Assembly: GCA_944392935.1 (NCBI GenBank)
Contig: CALXYI010000032.1
Span: 132-64,131, forward strand
Direction of reading: 5' to 3'
DNA from: an uncultured Spirochaetaceae bacterium
GTDB lineage: Bacteria > Spirochaetota > Spirochaetia > Sphaerochaetales > Sphaerochaetaceae
DNA length: 64,000 nucleotides
In this document: positions 1,550 to 64,000 of the stretch, one piece after another
How positions within the stretch are numbered: position 1 is the stretch's first letter
How the letters are laid out: each line of letters starts with the position of its first letter
Notes under the pieces: model-generated
What the model saw: only the letters and a program-made list of their open reading frames with translations
Database searches by the model: none
Told to the model about the DNA's origin: nothing
Program-made: the position numbers and the translations under genes

Positions 1550-2029
1550 CTACGAGAGATGGGTATTCCCGATACCAGCCGGATCAGTCTGAAGCTCCAT
1601 ATAGAGCAGTGGATATGGATTGCCCTGCTCATCAATCTCCGTGCGCCTGCATATATGGAAGCCCATATGCTCATAGAATCCGATTGCCTGCGGATTCTGC
1701 TCATTCACTGCCAGCCTGCGGACTCCGGATTCCTCGATGCCGTATCGCAGCAAACGCCTTCCGAGTCCTTTGCCGCGTTCCTTCGGTGCAATGAACAGCA
1801 TTTCCAATGTACCATTCCCTGTTCCCATGAATGCAGCAGGATTGCCTCTTTCATCGACAGCTATCACCAGATCAGGAACATCCATGAGGGCCTGCGGGAC
1901 GTATTCCTTTATCTTCAGGATCTCGCTATCAGACAAGAACAGGTGAGTGGCTCTCACTGAAGCCTCCCAGACTGCAAGCAGCTGCCCGATGAGTTCCGGA
2001 GTCCTTTCCTTTGCTTCCATTATCCTCAT
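1550..2029 (-). CDS. GNAT family acetyltransferase, YjaB-like
   Basis: ORF 1550..2080, with the start moved to the ATG at 2029 (MRIMEAKERTPE...). It is collinear with YjaB-type GNATs: WEASVRATHLFLS, LFIAPKERGKGLGRRLL, VNEQNPQAIGFYEHMGF, GNPYPLL. Confidence 0.8.
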   Translation of the reverse strand: MRIMEAKERTPELIGQLLAVWEASVRATHLFLSDSEILKIKEYVPQALMDVPDLVIAVDERGNPAAFMGTGNGTLEMLFIAPKERGKGLGRRLLRYGIEESGVRRLAVNEQNPQAIGFYEHMGFHICRRTEIDEQGNPYPLLYMELQTDPAGIGNTHLS

Positions 2030-2307
2030 GCAGATAGTGTAGACGAACACGTCTGCGAGTAGAAGGGGCAGGAAGTCCAAATGCTATATCTGCAATCTCA
2101 ATCCCGTATAAACCATATGCTTCATCATCTGGGAAGAAGCACATCCGGCATGAATGCTTTTGCAGTTATTGTCTTTGCATAATTTTGGATTATATTCCGA
2201 AATCACAATTATAATCTGAATCATAATTATTTTTTATTCTTGCAAACCTGCTTCATCGGGAATTCTCCGATGGATTTCCCTCATATTCCCCTGATAGCCT
2301 TCTCCTC

Positions 2308-2335
2308 TTGCAAATCTGCCCCCCCCCAGTATACT
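2308..2335 (+). promoter_or_regulatory. Putative promoter with a C9 homopolymer in the -35/-10 spacer
   Basis: TTGCAA (2308-2313), 16-nt spacer ATCTG-CCCCCCCCC-AG, TATACT (2330-2335). The C9 tract is at 2319-2327. The ATG at 2375 follows 39 nt downstream. Confidence 0.55.
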
Positions 2336-2374
2336 TGCAGCGGCACATCAAATCGAATCAGGAGGATTTGGAAA

Positions 2375-3133
2375 ATGAAATTCAGAAATGCATGTCTGCT
2401 GCTGTTGCTTCTCCCGATGATCATCGTATCCGGGATTTCCTGCAGCGATTCCGGTAATGGCGGAGCGGGCGGGGATGCCTCAGAAGCTGAGATCATCGAG
2501 GCAATCGAGGATGCCCTTGGCGGAATGAGCGTTATCCAATCTGCATTTGGCAGCAGCGGAGGAAGCATGCCCCCGTCTGGAGGAATGGCAGCTCAGCCGA
2601 AGTCCGCAGCTATCCTGGATGGAATGAACCTGTCAGACATCATCAAGGATCTGAGCAGCAAAGACGGAAGCTTCATGACTGAGCTCAATGCAGCGATAGA
2701 CAAGATGTCTCAGGGTACTGATCCAACGCCATTTACAGAGCAAACTGATTACGGTGAATTCAAAGTGAAGATGGATATGATGGCAGGGGCAACCGGAACT
2801 CAGCCTATGACTATATCCAATGTCGTCATTTCCGTAGGAGACACCCTGATGCTTGAGATACCCGACGGAACGATTTCAACTGGAAGCACCACTGTTCAGG
2901 ACTGGCATTTCCGCTATACAGACAAGAGGGAATACAGCGGATATCTTGTTGAATTCGATGCAAGGATGGAAATAACCGCATCAATGGGCCCGGATGCTTC
3001 ACCATCAGCCCCTGCAATGGAAAGCACCCTCTCGGATCTCAAGTACAAAGGAACTCCGCGTGAGGTAACGGATAACATAAACAGCGCCACTGCGGAGATG
3101 CTGGAGACGATCATTCTCGGCAAGACGAATTGA
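2375..3133 (+). CDS. Putative lipoprotein, function unknown
   Basis: ORF 2240..3133, with the start moved to ATG 2375 behind GGAGGA (2361-2366). The N-terminus MKFRNACLLLLLLPMIIVSGISC is a signal peptide with a lipobox-like Cys. The mature part is G/S/A/T/D-rich and I recognise no domain. Confidence 0.75.
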   Translation: MKFRNACLLLLLLPMIIVSGISCSDSGNGGAGGDASEAEIIEAIEDALGGMSVIQSAFGSSGGSMPPSGGMAAQPKSAAILDGMNLSDIIKDLSSKDGSFMTELNAAIDKMSQGTDPTPFTEQTDYGEFKVKMDMMAGATGTQPMTISNVVISVGDTLMLEIPDGTISTGSTTVQDWHFRYTDKREYSGYLVEFDARMEITASMGPDASPSAPAMESTLSDLKYKGTPREVTDNINSATAEMLETIILGKTN

Positions 3134-3249
3134 GACAGGACCGGAATACCTGGCAATCAAGCATGCCCCTGGACCGTTGATGTGTCTGGGGGCTTTCGTA
3201 TTAAAAAAGAGGATAGATAACAATCCGAGAGCCTTCTTATGGGTGAATC

Positions 3250-3290
3250 CCCTCCCTTTCATAATATTTCCTTCCTAAAGGGAGGGTATT
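3250..3290 (+). terminator. Hairpin after the first lipoprotein gene (probable terminator)
   Basis: Perfect 10-bp inverted repeat CCCTCCCTTT (3250-3259) / AAAGGGAGGG (3277-3286), followed by TATTTCTT. It sits immediately upstream of the next promoter. Confidence 0.5.
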
Positions 3291-3292
3291 TC

Positions 3293-3322
3293 TTGACAAG
3301 ATGCTACGGGGGGGGGTATTCT
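3293..3322 (+). promoter_or_regulatory. Putative promoter with a G9 homopolymer in the -35/-10 spacer
   Basis: TTGACA (3293-3298), 18-nt spacer AGATGCTAC-GGGGGGGGG, TATTCT (3317-3322). The G9 tract at 3308-3316 abuts the -10 element. The ATG at 3356 follows 33 nt downstream. Confidence 0.55.
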
Positions 3323-3355
3323 TACTTCAGATTTCAATATCTGGAGGATTTGAAA

Positions 3356-4096
3356 ATGAAGAAAATTCTTATGGTTCTTCTTGCTGCTATGGTCGTATTC
3401 GGCTTCACAGCATGTGATGAAAGCACACCGGCTCCAAGTGACGTGAAGACATCTGAAGTTGTTGCTTATTTCAACAACTTCGCAACAAAGCATATCTTCG
3501 GAGAGATCAACACTGCACTTAATGCAGAAAACAAGTCTACGGATGAGATAAGCAATCTTTCAGCTGTTTTTACAGAGGCTGTTACAGATGATCCGGATAC
3601 AGATGATGTAAATGAGGCGGCTCCTGCGAAAATCGTGTTCACCTATACTGCAACGGACATGAGGTACAATGGAGAGATTGAAGAGGGTGGTACAGATAAG
3701 ACCAACCATCGTCTTGTCAATGGAAACATAACCCTTACAGTAACTGGTACAGTTTCTGGCGAGACTAAATTCACCGCTAAGGATTTTACATTTGCCGGTA
3801 CGGACCTCAGGCTCACCGATGCCCAGACTGGAAAGGATTATGAAACACTTCCTGTCCTGACTGTCGATATCAAGGATTTCGCAGTTGATTTCGTAGCAGG
3901 CAAGGAAGCAGATATCACGCTTGAGAAGGAGGGTACGGGGGATGATGCTGTGCTAGCTCCTGTAGCTATTGAGGAACTTAAGGCGAATTCAGCTGATCTT
4001 GCTCAGGCTACTGGCAGCGTTGTCGTGAAGCCGAACAACATCTCATATGATTTCTCTCAGATAGTCGCGCTCATTGCGGCTGCACAGCAGCAGTGA
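3356..4096 (+). CDS. Putative lipoprotein, function unknown
   Basis: ORF 3239..4096, with the start moved to ATG 3356 behind GGAGGA (3343-3348). The N-terminus MKKILMVLLAAMVVFGFTAC is a signal peptide plus lipobox Cys. The mature part is T/D/E-rich, and GC is about 43-48%, lower than neighbouring core genes. Confidence 0.8.
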   Translation: MKKILMVLLAAMVVFGFTACDESTPAPSDVKTSEVVAYFNNFATKHIFGEINTALNAENKSTDEISNLSAVFTEAVTDDPDTDDVNEAAPAKIVFTYTATDMRYNGEIEEGGTDKTNHRLVNGNITLTVTGTVSGETKFTAKDFTFAGTDLRLTDAQTGKDYETLPVLTVDIKDFAVDFVAGKEADITLEKEGTGDDAVLAPVAIEELKANSADLAQATGSVVVKPNNISYDFSQIVALIAAAQQQ

Positions 4097-4121
4097 CTGC
4101 TGGCTGAGTGATTTCAGCGAT

Positions 4122-4149
4122 AAGGCCTCTCCGCACGGGGAGGCCTTTT
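4122..4149 (+). terminator. Rho-independent terminator
   Basis: 11-bp stem AAGGCCTCTCC / GGGGAGGCCTT (one G-U pair), loop GCAC, followed by TTTT. It lies 26 nt after the lipoprotein stop. Confidence 0.7.
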
Positions 4150-4169
4150 GAGAAAGCTGGGGAGTGTGC

Positions 4170-4370
4170 ATGGACGGAGTGAAGATGCGAAGGACACGCG
4201 TTCCTCAGGATAAGCGGATCGAGTGCCTCCAGTACTTCAAGGGCGGGCATGGATACAAGTTCGCTGCCAGCAGGACTGGGCTGAGCCGCTATACTGTCAG
4301 GGATTACCTCAGGAGCTATAAGGCCGGGGATATCACCTGGGCAGAACGCGAGGATATCTATCAGAAGTGA
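4170..4370 (+). CDS. Small helix-turn-helix protein (transposase-type HTH-like), possibly an orphan remnant
   Basis: About 66 aa. RIECLQYFKGGHGYKFAASRTGLSRYTVRDYLRSY looks like the N-terminal HTH of IS-family transposases or resolvase-like proteins. GGAG lies 6 nt upstream of ATG 4170. There is no catalytic domain downstream. Confidence 0.45.
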   Translation: MDGVKMRRTRVPQDKRIECLQYFKGGHGYKFAASRTGLSRYTVRDYLRSYKAGDITWAEREDIYQK

Positions 4371-4404
4371 GAGGCTTCCATGCGGGAGCCTCTCATATCA
4401 TAAT

Positions 4405-37914: not shown

Positions 37915-39621
37915 ATGAAATTCAAACCATCAGAGCCCTGGCGCTTCCTTGACGCATACAGGGGGAAGGAATTCCAGGGTGAGTGGCCGAATGTGAAGGA
38001 GACGTTCCATATCTCCGCACTGAGGTATCCTGACAATCTCTGCTTCCGCGCATTCTCTCCGAAGGAGGAGTCATTCACCTACAGCGAGGCAGAGAGGAAG
38101 ATAAGGGAAGTATCGTACTGCCTTATGTCCACAGGTGTCAGGAAAGGCGACAGGATCGCTGTATCAGGGAAGAACAGCCCGGAATGGGCGATTGCATATC
38201 TTGGTATCATCTATGCCGGGGCAACTGTTGTTCCGCTTGATTACTCCCTTAATGATGCTGAGATGGAGAGACTCATCGCCTTTGGCGGAGTCTCCCGTCT
38301 CTTCATCGACAAGGAGCGTCTCGGAAGGATCCAGGGCGGCCTTTCCGCCGTCTATTCCCTCGAGCCCGGTGCCGATGTCCCGTTCGTCCTCGATATGACA
38401 GGGCCGGAGGCTGAATGCGAGAGGGCAGAGGGCAGCGATATCGCCGCGATACTCTTCACTTCCGGAACCACCGGCACGCCGAAGGGCGTCATGCTCACGC
38501 ATGACAACCTCATCTCCGACTGCTATCTTGCGCAGGGCAATATGAACATCTTCTCCACGGATGTCTTCTATGCGATCCTCCCGATACATCATGCATATAC
38601 CATGCTTGCCGTCTTCTTCGAGGCATTCTCCGTGGGAGCCGCGACCGTATTCGGGAAGAAGCTCGTTGTGTCGCAGATACTCAGGGAGCTCAAGGATGGG
38701 CATGTGACGATGTTCCTCGCTGTCCCGATGCTCTTCAACAAGATGATAGCCGCGCTCATGGCAGGAGTCAGGAAGAAGGGGGCTGCTGTCTATGGCCTGG
38801 TAAGGGCGATGATGAGCTTCTCCGGCTTCGTGAAGAAGGTCTTCGGTGTGAACATCGGCAAGAGGATGTTCGGCTTCCTGCTGCGCAACCTGTCCCTTGA
38901 GGACAACAGGATATGCATCTGCGGCGGCGGCCCGCTTCCATCCTCCACATTCAGGATGTTCAATGAGCTCGGCATAGATTTCGTGCAGGGCTATGGGCTT
39001 ACGGAGACCTCTCCCATAACCCATCTCAATCCTGTCGAGGCGTATATCGAGACGTCGGTAGGGCGGAGGATACCCGGATGCGATGTGAGGATCGTCGATC
39101 CGGACAGCGACGGGAACGGCCTGATATACATCAAGGGCCCCATGGTCATGAAGGGCTACTACAACAACCCTGAGGCTACGGAGGAGATACTCTCCGATGA
39201 CGGATGGCTCAATACCGGCGATGTGGGGCATCAGGACGAGGACGGATATCTCTACCTTACAGGGCGGGCGAAGAGCGTGATCGTCACGGAAGGCGGCAAG
39301 AACGTCTTCCCTGAGGAGATAGAGGATCATTTCCAGCTCTATGATGATATAGACCAGGTGTGCATCATCGGCTATACCGCCGACAAGGCGCTGAGAAGCG
39401 AGGGGATAAGGGCGATCATCCTGCCATCGCAGGGCTATCTGAAGAAGGAGAGCGATGAAGCTGCTGTCGAGAAGCACATGAATGATATCGTCGCAGAGGT
39501 CAACAGGGAGCTCCAGAGCTATAAGAAGATAACCCGTGTGACCGTTGCCGATCATCCGATGCCGATGACGAGCACCAAGAAGATAAAGCGTTTCGAGGTC
39601 ATAGCCGAGTACGGCGACTGA
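37915..39621 (+). CDS. AMP-dependent synthetase / long-chain-fatty-acid--CoA ligase
   Basis: AMP-binding motif LFTSGTTGTPKGV, GYGLTETS, and a C-terminal KKIKRF-type end. Confidence 0.9.
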   Translation: MKFKPSEPWRFLDAYRGKEFQGEWPNVKETFHISALRYPDNLCFRAFSPKEESFTYSEAERKIREVSYCLMSTGVRKGDRIAVSGKNSPEWAIAYLGIIYAGATVVPLDYSLNDAEMERLIAFGGVSRLFIDKERLGRIQGGLSAVYSLEPGADVPFVLDMTGPEAECERAEGSDIAAILFTSGTTGTPKGVMLTHDNLISDCYLAQGNMNIFSTDVFYAILPIHHAYTMLAVFFEAFSVGAATVFGKKLVVSQILRELKDGHVTMFLAVPMLFNKMIAALMAGVRKKGAAVYGLVRAMMSFSGFVKKVFGVNIGKRMFGFLLRNLSLEDNRICICGGGPLPSSTFRMFNELGIDFVQGYGLTETSPITHLNPVEAYIETSVGRRIPGCDVRIVDPDSDGNGLIYIKGPMVMKGYYNNPEATEEILSDDGWLNTGDVGHQDEDGYLYLTGRAKSVIVTEGGKNVFPEEIEDHFQLYDDIDQVCIIGYTADKALRSEGIRAIILPSQGYLKKESDEAAVEKHMNDIVAEVNRELQSYKKITRVTVADHPMPMTSTKKIKRFEVIAEYGD

Positions 39622-39682
39622 TCAGGGGGGGCGGGAATCCGGCCTCTTGCCTTTATATTCCATCATGCGTATCTTTCAGGAT

Positions 39683-48315: not shown

Positions 48316-49178
48316 CGCTCGACCGCGAAGACTATCGTCTTGTTCCCGTAGACTATTATCCTGTGTTCGAGATGGGCCTTGACGGCGCTTGCGAGCACCC
48401 TCTTCTCGCAGTCCTTGCCGACTTCCTTCAGACCGCTCGGGGTGAGCTCGTGGTTGACCCGCACGACGTCCTGCTCGATTATAGGCCCCTGGTCGAGATC
48501 CTCCGAGGCATAATGGGCTGTCGCGCCGATCATCTTCACACCCCTCTGGTAGGCCCTTAGATATGGATTCGCCCCCTGGAATGCAGGCAGGAAGGCGTGG
48601 TGGATGTTTATTATCCTGTCCTTCCATTCAGCGGTGAACTCCGCGGAGAGTATCTGCATATAGCGGGCAAGCACCACGAGGTCTATGTCGAAGCGCTTGA
48701 GCAGATCGCGTATCTTCTTCTCCTGCTTCTCCTTGTCATCCCCGACAGGGAATGAATAGAAGGGAATCCTGAACTGGTTCGCTACCTTCTCGAGATCGGG
48801 GTGGTTCGAGATTATCAGAGGGATCTCCGCATTGAATTCCCCGTCAAGCTGGCGTGATACGAGGTCATAGAGGCAGTGGCTTGTCTTCGATACGAGTATC
48901 GCGATGCGCGTGCGGTAGTCAGACCAGTGGCAGGACCATTCGAGCTCCAGCTCAGCAGCCAGCGCGGAGAAGCTGTCCTCAAGATCCTTCCTCGTCTCTG
49001 TCATGTCGCTGGCATCGAGCTCTATGCGCATGAAGAAGCGCTTCTCGTAGCTGTCCGTATGCTGCTGGCAGTGCAGGATGCTGAATCCCTTGGCTGCGAA
49101 GAATCCCACGATGGCTGACAGGAGCCCCTTCCTGTCGCTGCACTGTATGAGGAATATGGCCTTAGTCATCCTCTCCAT
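48312..49178 (-). CDS. purU: Formyltetrahydrofolate deformylase
   Basis: N-terminal ACT domain (FLIQCSDRKGLLSAIVGFF) plus a formyltransferase domain (INIHHAFLPAFQGANPY). Start taken at MERMTKA, overlapping the xseB end. The ORF is open to 49298. Confidence 0.9.
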   Translation of the reverse strand: MERMTKAIFLIQCSDRKGLLSAIVGFFAAKGFSILHCQQHTDSYEKRFFMRIELDASDMTETRKDLEDSFSALAAELELEWSCHWSDYRTRIAILVSKTSHCLYDLVSRQLDGEFNAEIPLIISNHPDLEKVANQFRIPFYSFPVGDDKEKQEKKIRDLLKRFDIDLVVLARYMQILSAEFTAEWKDRIINIHHAFLPAFQGANPYLRAYQRGVKMIGATAHYASEDLDQGPIIEQDVVRVNHELTPSGLKEVGKDCEKRVLASAVKAHLEHRIIVYGNKTIVFAVER

Positions 49179-49389
49179 CTCCCTTCCATTCCTCCGTCTC
49201 AAGCTCGTTCTCGTTATCCGAGACGACCTTCTCGACCTTGCGCTGTATCTCCGTAAGCGTCTTCGTGAGCTTCCTGCCAAGCTCGCTCGCTTCCTCATAC
49301 AGCTTGATCGATTCCTCGAGTCCTGTATCCTCTTTCCTTAGGAGATCCGTTATCTCCTCCATTCTCCTGAGATCGCTTTCGAAGCTCAT
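49162..49389 (-). CDS. xseB: Exodeoxyribonuclease VII small subunit
   Basis: 75 aa. LRRMEEITDLL and LEESIKLYEEA. It directly follows xseA. Confidence 0.85.
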   Translation of the reverse strand: MSFESDLRRMEEITDLLRKEDTGLEESIKLYEEASELGRKLTKTLTEIQRKVEKVVSDNENELETEEWKGDGEDD

Positions 49390-63515: not shown

Positions 63516-63597
63516 GCGGTCGTGGTGGAATTGGTAGACACGCTAGCTTGAGGTGCTAGTGGCGAGAGCTGTGCTGGTTCAAGTCCAGTCGACCGCA
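63516..63597 (+). tRNA. tRNA-Leu (anticodon GAG)
   Basis: GCGGTCGTGGTGGAATTGGTAGACACGCTAGCTTGAGGTGCTAGTGGCGAGAGCTGTGCTGGTTCAAGTCCAGTCGACCGCA. Acceptor GCGGTCG/CGACCGC, anticodon stem CTAGC/GCTAG, loop TTGAGGT, long variable arm, T loop TTCAAGT. CCA is not encoded. Confidence 0.9.
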
Positions 63598-63611
63598 TCC
63601 AATCGTTAAAT

Positions 63612-63649
63612 CCTTCTGGCTTCCATACTTGGTCAGAAGGTTTTTTTTT
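63612..63649 (+). terminator. Rho-independent terminator of tRNA-Leu
   Basis: CCTTCTG-(15-nt loop)-CAGAAGG followed by T9. Confidence 0.8.
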
Positions 63650-63720
63650 GCTGTTGCTCATTTCAGCTAGTGAACTTCTTGCAGCTGGTTCAATTTCGGC
63701 TCAGTTCTAGGAGGGTGCGG

Positions 63721-64000
63721 ATGTACATGGACAGGGTTTCTCACTACACATTGACGAGGGCATCAAACGGGGTGTGGTATTACTATGCCTACGACGATTC
63801 AGGACGCAGGATCCGCAGGTCGACGATGAGAAGAAGCAGGAGAGAGGCGGAGAACGAGAGCCACAGGAGGATAGCCCGTGGAGGGCTGCTGATGAAGCCT
63901 GACGTGAACAGGGATCGCAAGGATGACGTTCCAGGAGTTCAGCCGCCCGTTCTGGGTATGGAGCGAATGCCCGATCATAAGGGACAAGCTCGCCAGAGGC
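63721..64000 (+). pseudogene. Phage-type tyrosine integrase, 5' part (runs off the window), with an apparent frame change
   Basis: AGGAGG lies 6 nt upstream of ATG 63721. Frame 1 gives an integrase-like N-terminal arm motif (YTLTRASNGVWYYYAYDDSGRRIRRST..RREAE). The next expected motif (MTFQEFSRPFWVWSECPIIRDKLARG) is in the +1 frame from 63923, and that frame is closed by a stop at 63905-63907. Confidence 0.45.

Follow-up and report, generated by a model that had tools for sequence, protein, structure and literature searches.

The window analyzed here, a stretch of 64,000 nucleotides from an uncultured Spirochaetaceae bacterium, carries two adjacent genes for predicted lipoproteins, and in front of each of them a sigma-70-type promoter can be predicted whose -35/-10 spacer contains a run of nine G:C pairs. 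On the coding strand this run is C for promoter 1, which precedes gene 1, and G for promoter 2, which precedes gene 2. The same layout is found twice in tandem: a -35 hexamer, a spacer bearing the tract, a -10 hexamer, a leader of 25-35 nt, a strong ribosome binding site (RBS), and the ATG of a lipoprotein gene. An 18-nt block around the RBS (D1) is common to the leaders of both genes. Table 1 collects the coordinates, where the hexamers of both promoters are predicted from sequence and position only.

Table 1. Predicted features of the two lipoprotein genes and their promoters, in window coordinates. L001 to L013 are the contigs and scaffolds used for comparison.
Feature	Coordinates	Strand	Remarks
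Upstream duplicate of the promoter 1 -35 block, TCTTGCAAACCTGC	2238..2251	+	Direct repeat D2; without homopolymer, without -10
-35-like hexamer TTGCAA, promoter 1	2308..2313	+	Consensus scan; invariant in 9 assemblies
Spacer, promoter 1	2314-2329	+	16 nt
Poly-C tract C9 in the promoter 1 spacer	2319..2327	+	Proposed slipped-strand element; C9 in six samples, C8 in L007
-10-like hexamer TATACT, promoter 1	2330..2335	+	Consensus scan; invariant across assemblies
RBS AGGAGG, gene 1	2360..2365	+	9 nt 5' of ATG 2375; within the D1 block
Lipoprotein gene 1	2375..3133	+	252 aa; starts MKFRNACLLLLLLPMIIVSGISC; signal peptide with lipobox-like GISC
Terminator-like hairpin AATCCCCTCCCTTT / AAAGGGAGGGTATT, 17-nt loop, then T-rich stretch	3246..3290	+	Inverted repeat I3, 14-bp hairpin
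-35 hexamer TTGACA, promoter 2	3293..3298	+	Perfect consensus; TTGAC kept in sister-species L012
Poly-G tract G9, promoter 2	3308..3316	+	3' half of the 18-nt spacer, abuts the -10; length varies between assemblies
-10-like hexamer TATTCT, promoter 2	3317..3322	+	TATT kept in sister species
RBS GGAGG, gene 2	3343..3347	+	Within the D1 block
Lipoprotein gene 2	3356..4096	+	246 aa; MKKILMVLLAAMVVFGFTAC; hypervariable between strains

Positions 2308-2335 of the window read TTGCAA ATCTG CCCCCCCCC AG TATACT. A sequence-only reading of this DNA had described them as a promoter for gene 1 with a homopolymer inside its spacer, and both direct reading and a script check return every element of that anatomy (TTGCAA, the 16-nt spacer, C9, and TATACT) where it had been placed. 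The C9 does fill over half of the spacer, 9 of its 16 bases. A consensus scan lists TTGCAA/16/TATACT independently with a score of 9/12. Taken alone, a promoter-like match of this kind occurs at chance frequency and is not significant, as the scan reports 4 such sites in 2.4 kb versus 3.2 expected from shuffles.

The direct repeat D2, TCTTGCAAAYCTGC, occupies 2238-2251 and 2306-2319, with copies that are 93% identical and 68 nt apart, and its first copy reads TCTCGCAAACCTGC in L001-L003. The upstream copy may be a regulator site, or it may be a vestigial duplication. Strains also differ here by a 5-nt indel near 2228, and by a 12-nt indel at about 2281-2292, immediately 5' of promoter 1, where the extra nucleotides are present in the window and in L004-L007, and absent from L001-L003 and L008.

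The G9 in front of gene 2, at 3308-3316, had been overlooked in that earlier reading. It is the second of exactly two G/C runs of at least 8 in the 64-kb window, the other being the C9 at 2319. By order-2 and order-3 Markov simulations, 0.10-0.14 runs of at least 9 are expected per window. Both tracts lie 20-70 nt 5' of a start codon, a zone that makes up 4.7% of the window, and in 13 related loci there are no G/C runs of at least 6 other than these two tracts. The placement of the twin tracts is more than chance. The longest other G/C run of the window is a G7 (39625-39631), found 3 nt past the stop of the ORF 37915..39621; the ORF that follows begins with ATG 39666, about 35 nt further on, and no promoter spacer is obvious around the run.

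Two further observations concern how these genes would be transcribed. A terminator scan matches the inner part of the I3 hairpin (3269-3286), and because this hairpin and its T-rich stretch stand between them, genes 1 and 2 look like separate transcription units. Moreover, one coding strand carries C and the other carries G, which fits a role of the tracts as duplex DNA in the spacer rather than a role at the RNA level. When 1900-4400 was scanned against Rfam by E-value for an RNA element in the leaders, the sole match was to a miRNA inside gene 2, at chance level.

We class both products as putative lipoproteins by their signal peptide and an invariant Cys only. The gene 1 product reads MKFRNACLLLLLLPMIIVSGIS-C, and 5 family members, the most distant at 32% identity, all keep its Cys23. 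The gene 2 product reads ...VVFGFTA-C, and its Cys20 is invariant in 6 alleles. The residues -3 to -1 of the gene 1 lipobox are G-I-S and differ from the E. coli consensus; spirochaetal lipoboxes are looser than that consensus. The earlier call of gene 1 as a lipoprotein gains from the comparison, with the Cys kept in all family members including three homologs at 32-35% identity.

Both proteins are otherwise orphans. Exact-sequence look-ups returned no match for either of them, and no Pfam or NCBIfam family covers either. Among 5.8 billion proteins, the gene 1 protein has just one 90% cluster, and an exhaustive phmmer search against 1.84 billion representatives adds only the three homologs at 32-35% identity (P0017-P0019). 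Its sole genome match is the metagenome-assembled genome (MAG) L008, "uncultured Spirochaetaceae bacterium", at 96% amino acid identity, and neither the gene 1 protein nor the family alignment found a relative when used as a query against JGI metagenome contigs. The AF2 model of the gene 1 product (pLDDT 70.5) has three helices, a seven-stranded sheet, and a C-terminal helix. The gene 2 model has a pLDDT of 61, and both models show a helix, an antiparallel sheet, and a C-terminal helix; neither has a PDB fold match at E < 0.001. BLASTP and hhalign align genes 1 and 2 with each other over the signal peptide only, so that they have no detectable homology beyond it. By sequence or by fold, neither product shows homology to Tpr or to the OmpW beta-barrel.

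The surroundings of the pair deserve a description of their own. The window starts inside a gene with a Fic/DOC domain (8-511). In L002 (1877-3145) this gene is complete (RhuM + Fic) and comes after a gene for a BrnA antitoxin. The Fic region lies between two GNAT acetyltransferase genes, which makes for an accessory-gene neighborhood adjoining the lipoprotein pair. At the other end of the window (63516-64000) there is a tRNA-Leu(gag), and after it a hairpin that carries a T9 run (63641-63649). Past the T9 run, ORF fragments in two frames, which continue off the window end, recall the N-termini of tyrosine integrases. This end may be the integration site of a mobile element with a candidate integrase.

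We compared the locus with contigs from seven other samples, taken from ENA, Logan, and NCBI assemblies and reached via the 90% cluster of the gene 1 protein. They represent seven distinct haplotypes, and all tract lengths given here are the consensus of short-read metagenome assemblies. At promoter 1, six samples have a C9 (window, L001, L002/L003, L004, L005/L006, and L008), and L007 has a C8. The G tract of promoter 2 varies more between samples: four have a G9 (window, L006, L007, and L010), three have a G10 (L001, L002/L003, and L009), and a G11 stands at the end of scaffold L004. With these tracts, the promoter 1 spacer measures 16 or 15 nt and the promoter 2 spacer measures 18, 19, or 20 nt. 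A spacer of 17 nt was found in no sample for either promoter.

Both tracts differ in length between strains within flanks that are conserved, the C tract by one variant. From about 2300 to the gene 1 ATG, and from the hairpin (about 3247) to the ATG at 3356, everything else is invariant, with the exception of an A/G position after the C tract and an A/T position before the G tract. The distal intergenic DNA, with its SNPs and its 5-nt and 12-nt indels, is far less conserved than the core promoters. L004, L006, and L007 differ by merely 5-13 SNPs per 1.3 kb, and yet they carry C9/G11(10), C9/G9, and C8/G9, respectively. As G10 is present in two haplotype groups, the change in length is recurrent.

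How far can consensus lengths be trusted at a homopolymer? The assemblers agree on the same samples: L002 and L003 both have C9 and G10, and L005 and L006 both have C9. Such agreement of independent assemblers argues against random assembly error, and in three samples the G10 is internal to long contigs. Other contigs stop at the tract. L008 ends inside it (10936), and in the sample ERZ16268169 one scaffold (L004) ends just past a G11 and another (L009) begins just before a G10. A de Bruijn assembler breaks where the reads disagree in length, so that breaks at the G tract suggest mixed lengths within a sample. The overlap of L004 and L009 also differs at a T3/T4 run, the G11 sits at a contig end, and the disagreement between the two scaffolds may reflect either a mixture of strains or an error at the contig end. 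The lone C8 consensus of L007 could likewise be an assembly error. Separately, scaffold L005 switches from about 1390 onward to an unrelated low-GC sequence, after "ttccttcct" and inside the gene 1 terminator hairpin. It is probably chimeric, judging by the Logan assembly L006, presumably of the same sample, which continues normally.

The length heterogeneity anticipated at related loci does exist, then, in that the C tract is not invariant, with C8 (a 15-nt spacer) in one of the seven samples. The sequence-only reading had gone further and proposed a slipped-strand switch in which one added C would give the optimal 17-nt spacer, the ON state. The switch gains from the variation in tract length and from the twin G tract with its G9, G10, and G11, and it is weakened by a C-tract variation that amounts to one C8 assembly. 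The 17-nt state itself has no example, as no sample carries such a spacer.

A longer evolutionary comparison is available for promoter 2. Homologs of gene 2 at 61% identity occur in L011-L013, in a different genomic neighborhood. The formyltransferase gene adjoining them is 74% nucleotide-identical to window positions 48319-49180, which identifies L011-L013 as a sister species. Upstream of the gene 2 homolog, L012 has TTGACT, a 19-nt spacer, and TATTAT, with a G8 abutting the -10, and when L012 is aligned with the window, conservation is limited to TTGAC, the G run, TATT, the RBS, and the ATG. The sister-species tract is G8 or G9. This footprint is the best available evidence that the hexamers and the G tract are functional parts of one promoter. 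Along with the invariance of the core promoter within the species, it lends indirect support to a transcription start at the predicted promoter. In L011 (40-101) we find a G9 and a TATTAT, but with unrelated upstream DNA and without a well-placed -35. The L011 tract lies only 92 nt away from the end of its contig, and the locus was either rearranged at the tract or misassembled.

The genes themselves diverge more than their surroundings. Relative to the window, gene 1 has a dN of 0.019-0.034 and a dS of 0.05-0.08 (dN/dS 0.26-0.57). For gene 2, the values are dN 0.075, dS 0.102, and dN/dS 0.74 in L010, and dN 0.405, dS 1.309, and dN/dS 0.31 in L002. The five neighbors beyond gene 2 (flavodoxin-like, flavokinase, PNPOx, Bmp, and ABC ATPase) have a dN of 0-0.003 and a dS of at most 0.034. 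The GNAT gene directly 5' of gene 1, with a dN of 0.002-0.023, is more diverged, which leaves the hot spot without a sharp edge on the gene 1 side. Identities of gene 2 alleles to that of the window range from 100% down to 49%, with 88% and 87% among them. The most distant one is found in L002 (5983-6741), where a 49% identical protein sits between flanks that are 97-99.6% nucleotide-identical. By its sequence context, this allele looks like a replacement by recombination.

Diverged genes in conserved flanks mark this locus as a hot spot of divergence whose alleles are old or imported. With this divergence and their invariant Cys, both products resemble variable surface antigens. The pattern fits what would be seen in exposed proteins under selection; that many spirochaetal lipoproteins are periplasmic speaks against exposure. 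With dN/dS below 1 for both genes, what we observe is elevated divergence, with no formal signal of positive selection.

We can now state the mechanism that these data would support. Each lipoprotein gene would be transcribed separately from its own sigma-70-type promoter, in which a G:C homopolymer makes up most of the -35/-10 spacer. Slipped-strand mispairing during replication would add or remove single G:C pairs, and the resulting change in spacer length would shift both the distance and the rotational phasing of the hexamers, and with them the strength of the promoter. Each lipoprotein would thereby switch, stochastically and reversibly yet heritably, between a higher level of expression and a lower one or none, and the two genes would do so independently. 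A sigma-70 spacer is optimal at 17 nt, reduced at one nucleotide to either side, and poor at two or more away. The window strain would then have both genes at intermediate expression, each at one step from the optimum (+1 C for gene 1, and -1 G for gene 2).

All the variants that we see lie further from 17 nt than the window strain does. Populations could be kept for the most part at low or no expression, as is reported for T. pallidum tprE/G/J (PMC7864442). Or else the assignment of the hexamers, or the assumed optimum, could be off by one, and this is where the model is weakest internally. We infer that the predicted hexamers are the actual promoters, that transcription is governed by tract length, that switching takes place within clones, and that the products are exposed at the surface. 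With these steps in mind, we consider it probable, if well short of certain, that the locus undergoes slipped-strand promoter-spacer phase variation of the type of Treponema pallidum tp0126 or Neisseria porA. The neighboring G tract and the comparative data considerably strengthen this interpretation, which they support in part. Our confidence is somewhat lower for the C tract alone, because its variability consists of one C8 assembly.

Other readings of the tracts have to be weighed against this one. It is unlikely, in our judgment, that the tracts are hypermutable but neutral, the real promoters being elsewhere or indifferent to tract length. Such neutrality would agree with promoter-like matches at the chance rate, with the lack of any sample at the 17-nt optimum, and with the variation of other short runs in the same intergenic regions (T4/T5 and C4/C5). 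It would leave us with two 9-mers, where 0.10-0.14 are expected, in equivalent promoter positions of adjacent lipoprotein genes; with a G tract kept in the sister species where the remaining spacer and the leader have diverged beyond alignment; and with core promoter flanks that stay invariant while the upstream intergenic DNA accumulates SNPs and indels. Could the tracts instead be fixed, as a rigid G:C spacer that tunes promoter strength or supercoiling sensitivity, or as a regulator site, so that the length differences are stable alleles or noise? G:C runs of at least 8 are known to be intrinsically unstable in every organism tested, and this instability counts against a fixed feature, as do the three G-tract lengths among closely related haplotypes, the G10 in two haplotype groups, and the contigs that break at the G tract. 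We find a fixed feature quite unlikely, even when the C9 of six out of seven samples and the concordance of same-sample assemblies (L002 with L003, and L005 with L006 for C9) are put on its side. It is also favored by a finding in T. pallidum, where the CRP homolog Tp0262 binds the tprE, tprG, and tprJ promoters, which carry CRP-like motifs, and acts in concert with poly-G length (PMC7864442).

Very unlikely is that the length differences are all artefacts of sequencing or assembly at long homopolymers. The data are all short-read metagenome consensus, the G11 sits at a contig end together with a second homopolymer discrepancy, and L005 is visibly chimeric. Against this, two assemblers arrive at the same lengths for the same samples (C9 and G10 for L002/L003, C9 for L005/L006), and three samples have their G10 in the interior of long contigs. 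Were it true all the same, the artefact would remove the evidence from variation and leave the anatomy and the cross-species conservation in place. A translational switch is a different matter. In the window, both tracts happen to be in frame with upstream starts, at ATG 2270 for gene 1 and at ATG 3239 for gene 2 (ORFs 2240..3133 and 3239..4096), and they could then be seen as intragenic frameshift switches. Neither of these ATGs is preceded by an RBS, strong RBSs precede 2375 and 3356, and the N-terminal extensions would bury the signal peptides. Public gene calls start at the downstream ATG (the 252-aa gene 1, and the MKKIL ATG for gene 2 alleles), a G10 (three samples) puts gene 2 out of frame, and a C8 breaks the frame of gene 1. 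In addition, the gene 1 extension shows non-conservative changes and a 12-nt indel, and the extension from 3239 crosses the gene 1 terminator hairpin. We reject the frameshift switch as highly improbable on account of the missing RBS, the buried signal peptide, and the frame broken by G10 and C8. Finally, an inverted repeat (I5, CCCCCCCCAGTA / TACGGGGGGGGG) flanks gene 1, as if C9 and G9 were the arms of an invertible segment that flips the gene. The repeat extends just 3 nt beyond the tract, no recombinase gene adjoins it, and all assemblies have one and the same orientation, so that this candidate, to which we give almost no credence, is also rejected.

If slipped-strand phase variation were confirmed at this locus, a mechanism that among spirochetes is documented, in the literature we searched, only for T. 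pallidum would extend to an uncultured relative, and two orphan lipoproteins would be flagged as probable surface-exposed antigens or receptors under selection. The mechanism itself is well known, and what is new is its occurrence in an uncultured spirochete, with no new class of mechanism. The natural pair of promoters, one with a spacer below 17 nt and the other above, suits a test of G:C spacer length against promoter strength. There is also a practical side to it. Since such tracts break contigs and shift the annotated start codons, recognizing them improves the annotation of MAGs. We offer a broader idea tentatively, as one that could well prove wrong: promoter phase variation by poly-G/C might be a wider strategy of the Spirochaetaceae and not a specialization of the pathogen T. 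pallidum. The present species and its sister would then maintain hypermutable tracts in the promoters of orphan lipoproteins that diversify rapidly, and the two tracts might form a combinatorial surface switch (of four or more states) on top of the hypervariable alleles of gene 2. Phage or host immunity might be the driving force, and the organism a non-pathogenic member of its community.

In gene organization the pair resembles the Mycoplasma hyorhinis vlp system, in which neighboring variable surface lipoprotein genes, each with a homopolymer in the promoter spacer, switch ON and OFF in combination. As in vlp, neighboring lipoprotein genes here have each their own promoter tract. The vlp tracts, in contrast, are poly-A, and the vlp genes are paralogs with repetitive coding regions, whereas the genes here are without homology beyond the signal peptide. 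The porA gene of N. meningitidis carries a poly-G between -35 and -10, the classic case of a homopolymer that modulates transcription through its length (summarized in PMC7864442), and it shares this position with the tracts described here. Neisseria porA and opc differ from our case in phylum and in their products, which are porins or adhesins, and the opc poly-C overlaps the -35 instead of lying in the spacer.

The T. pallidum systems come from the same bacterial family. In tprE, tprG, and tprJ, promoters are permissive only at 8 G or fewer, and populations mostly have longer, low-expression lengths; 76% of 17 further poly-G tracts of at least 8 that were tested also varied in length (PMC7864442). 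Promoter 2 resembles tprE/G/J in that its G9-G11 is always above the 17-nt optimum; the poly-G of tprE/G/J and tprL lies just 5' of the TSS. The tprL tract overlaps the -10 region without changing the -35/-10 spacing, unlike the G tract here, which is inside the spacer and abuts the -10. Our products are homologous neither to those of tprE/G/J nor to that of tprL, and because they match neither Tpr nor OmpW, the likeness to the T. pallidum systems is one of promoter mechanism only. In that mechanism the locus would work like tp0126, an OmpW homolog with a poly-G between -35 and -10, for which transcription is optimal at a 17-nt spacing (PMC7864442). Unlike tp0126, the product here is an orphan lipoprotein and not an OmpW-like beta-barrel, and we have two adjacent genes with tracts in opposite strand orientation, in an uncultured MAG other than T. 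pallidum, known here from sequence alone. Like tp0126, the locus belongs to the Spirochaetaceae and places a G:C homopolymer of about 8-11 in the predicted sigma-70-type spacer of an envelope protein gene, where its length sets the length of the spacer.
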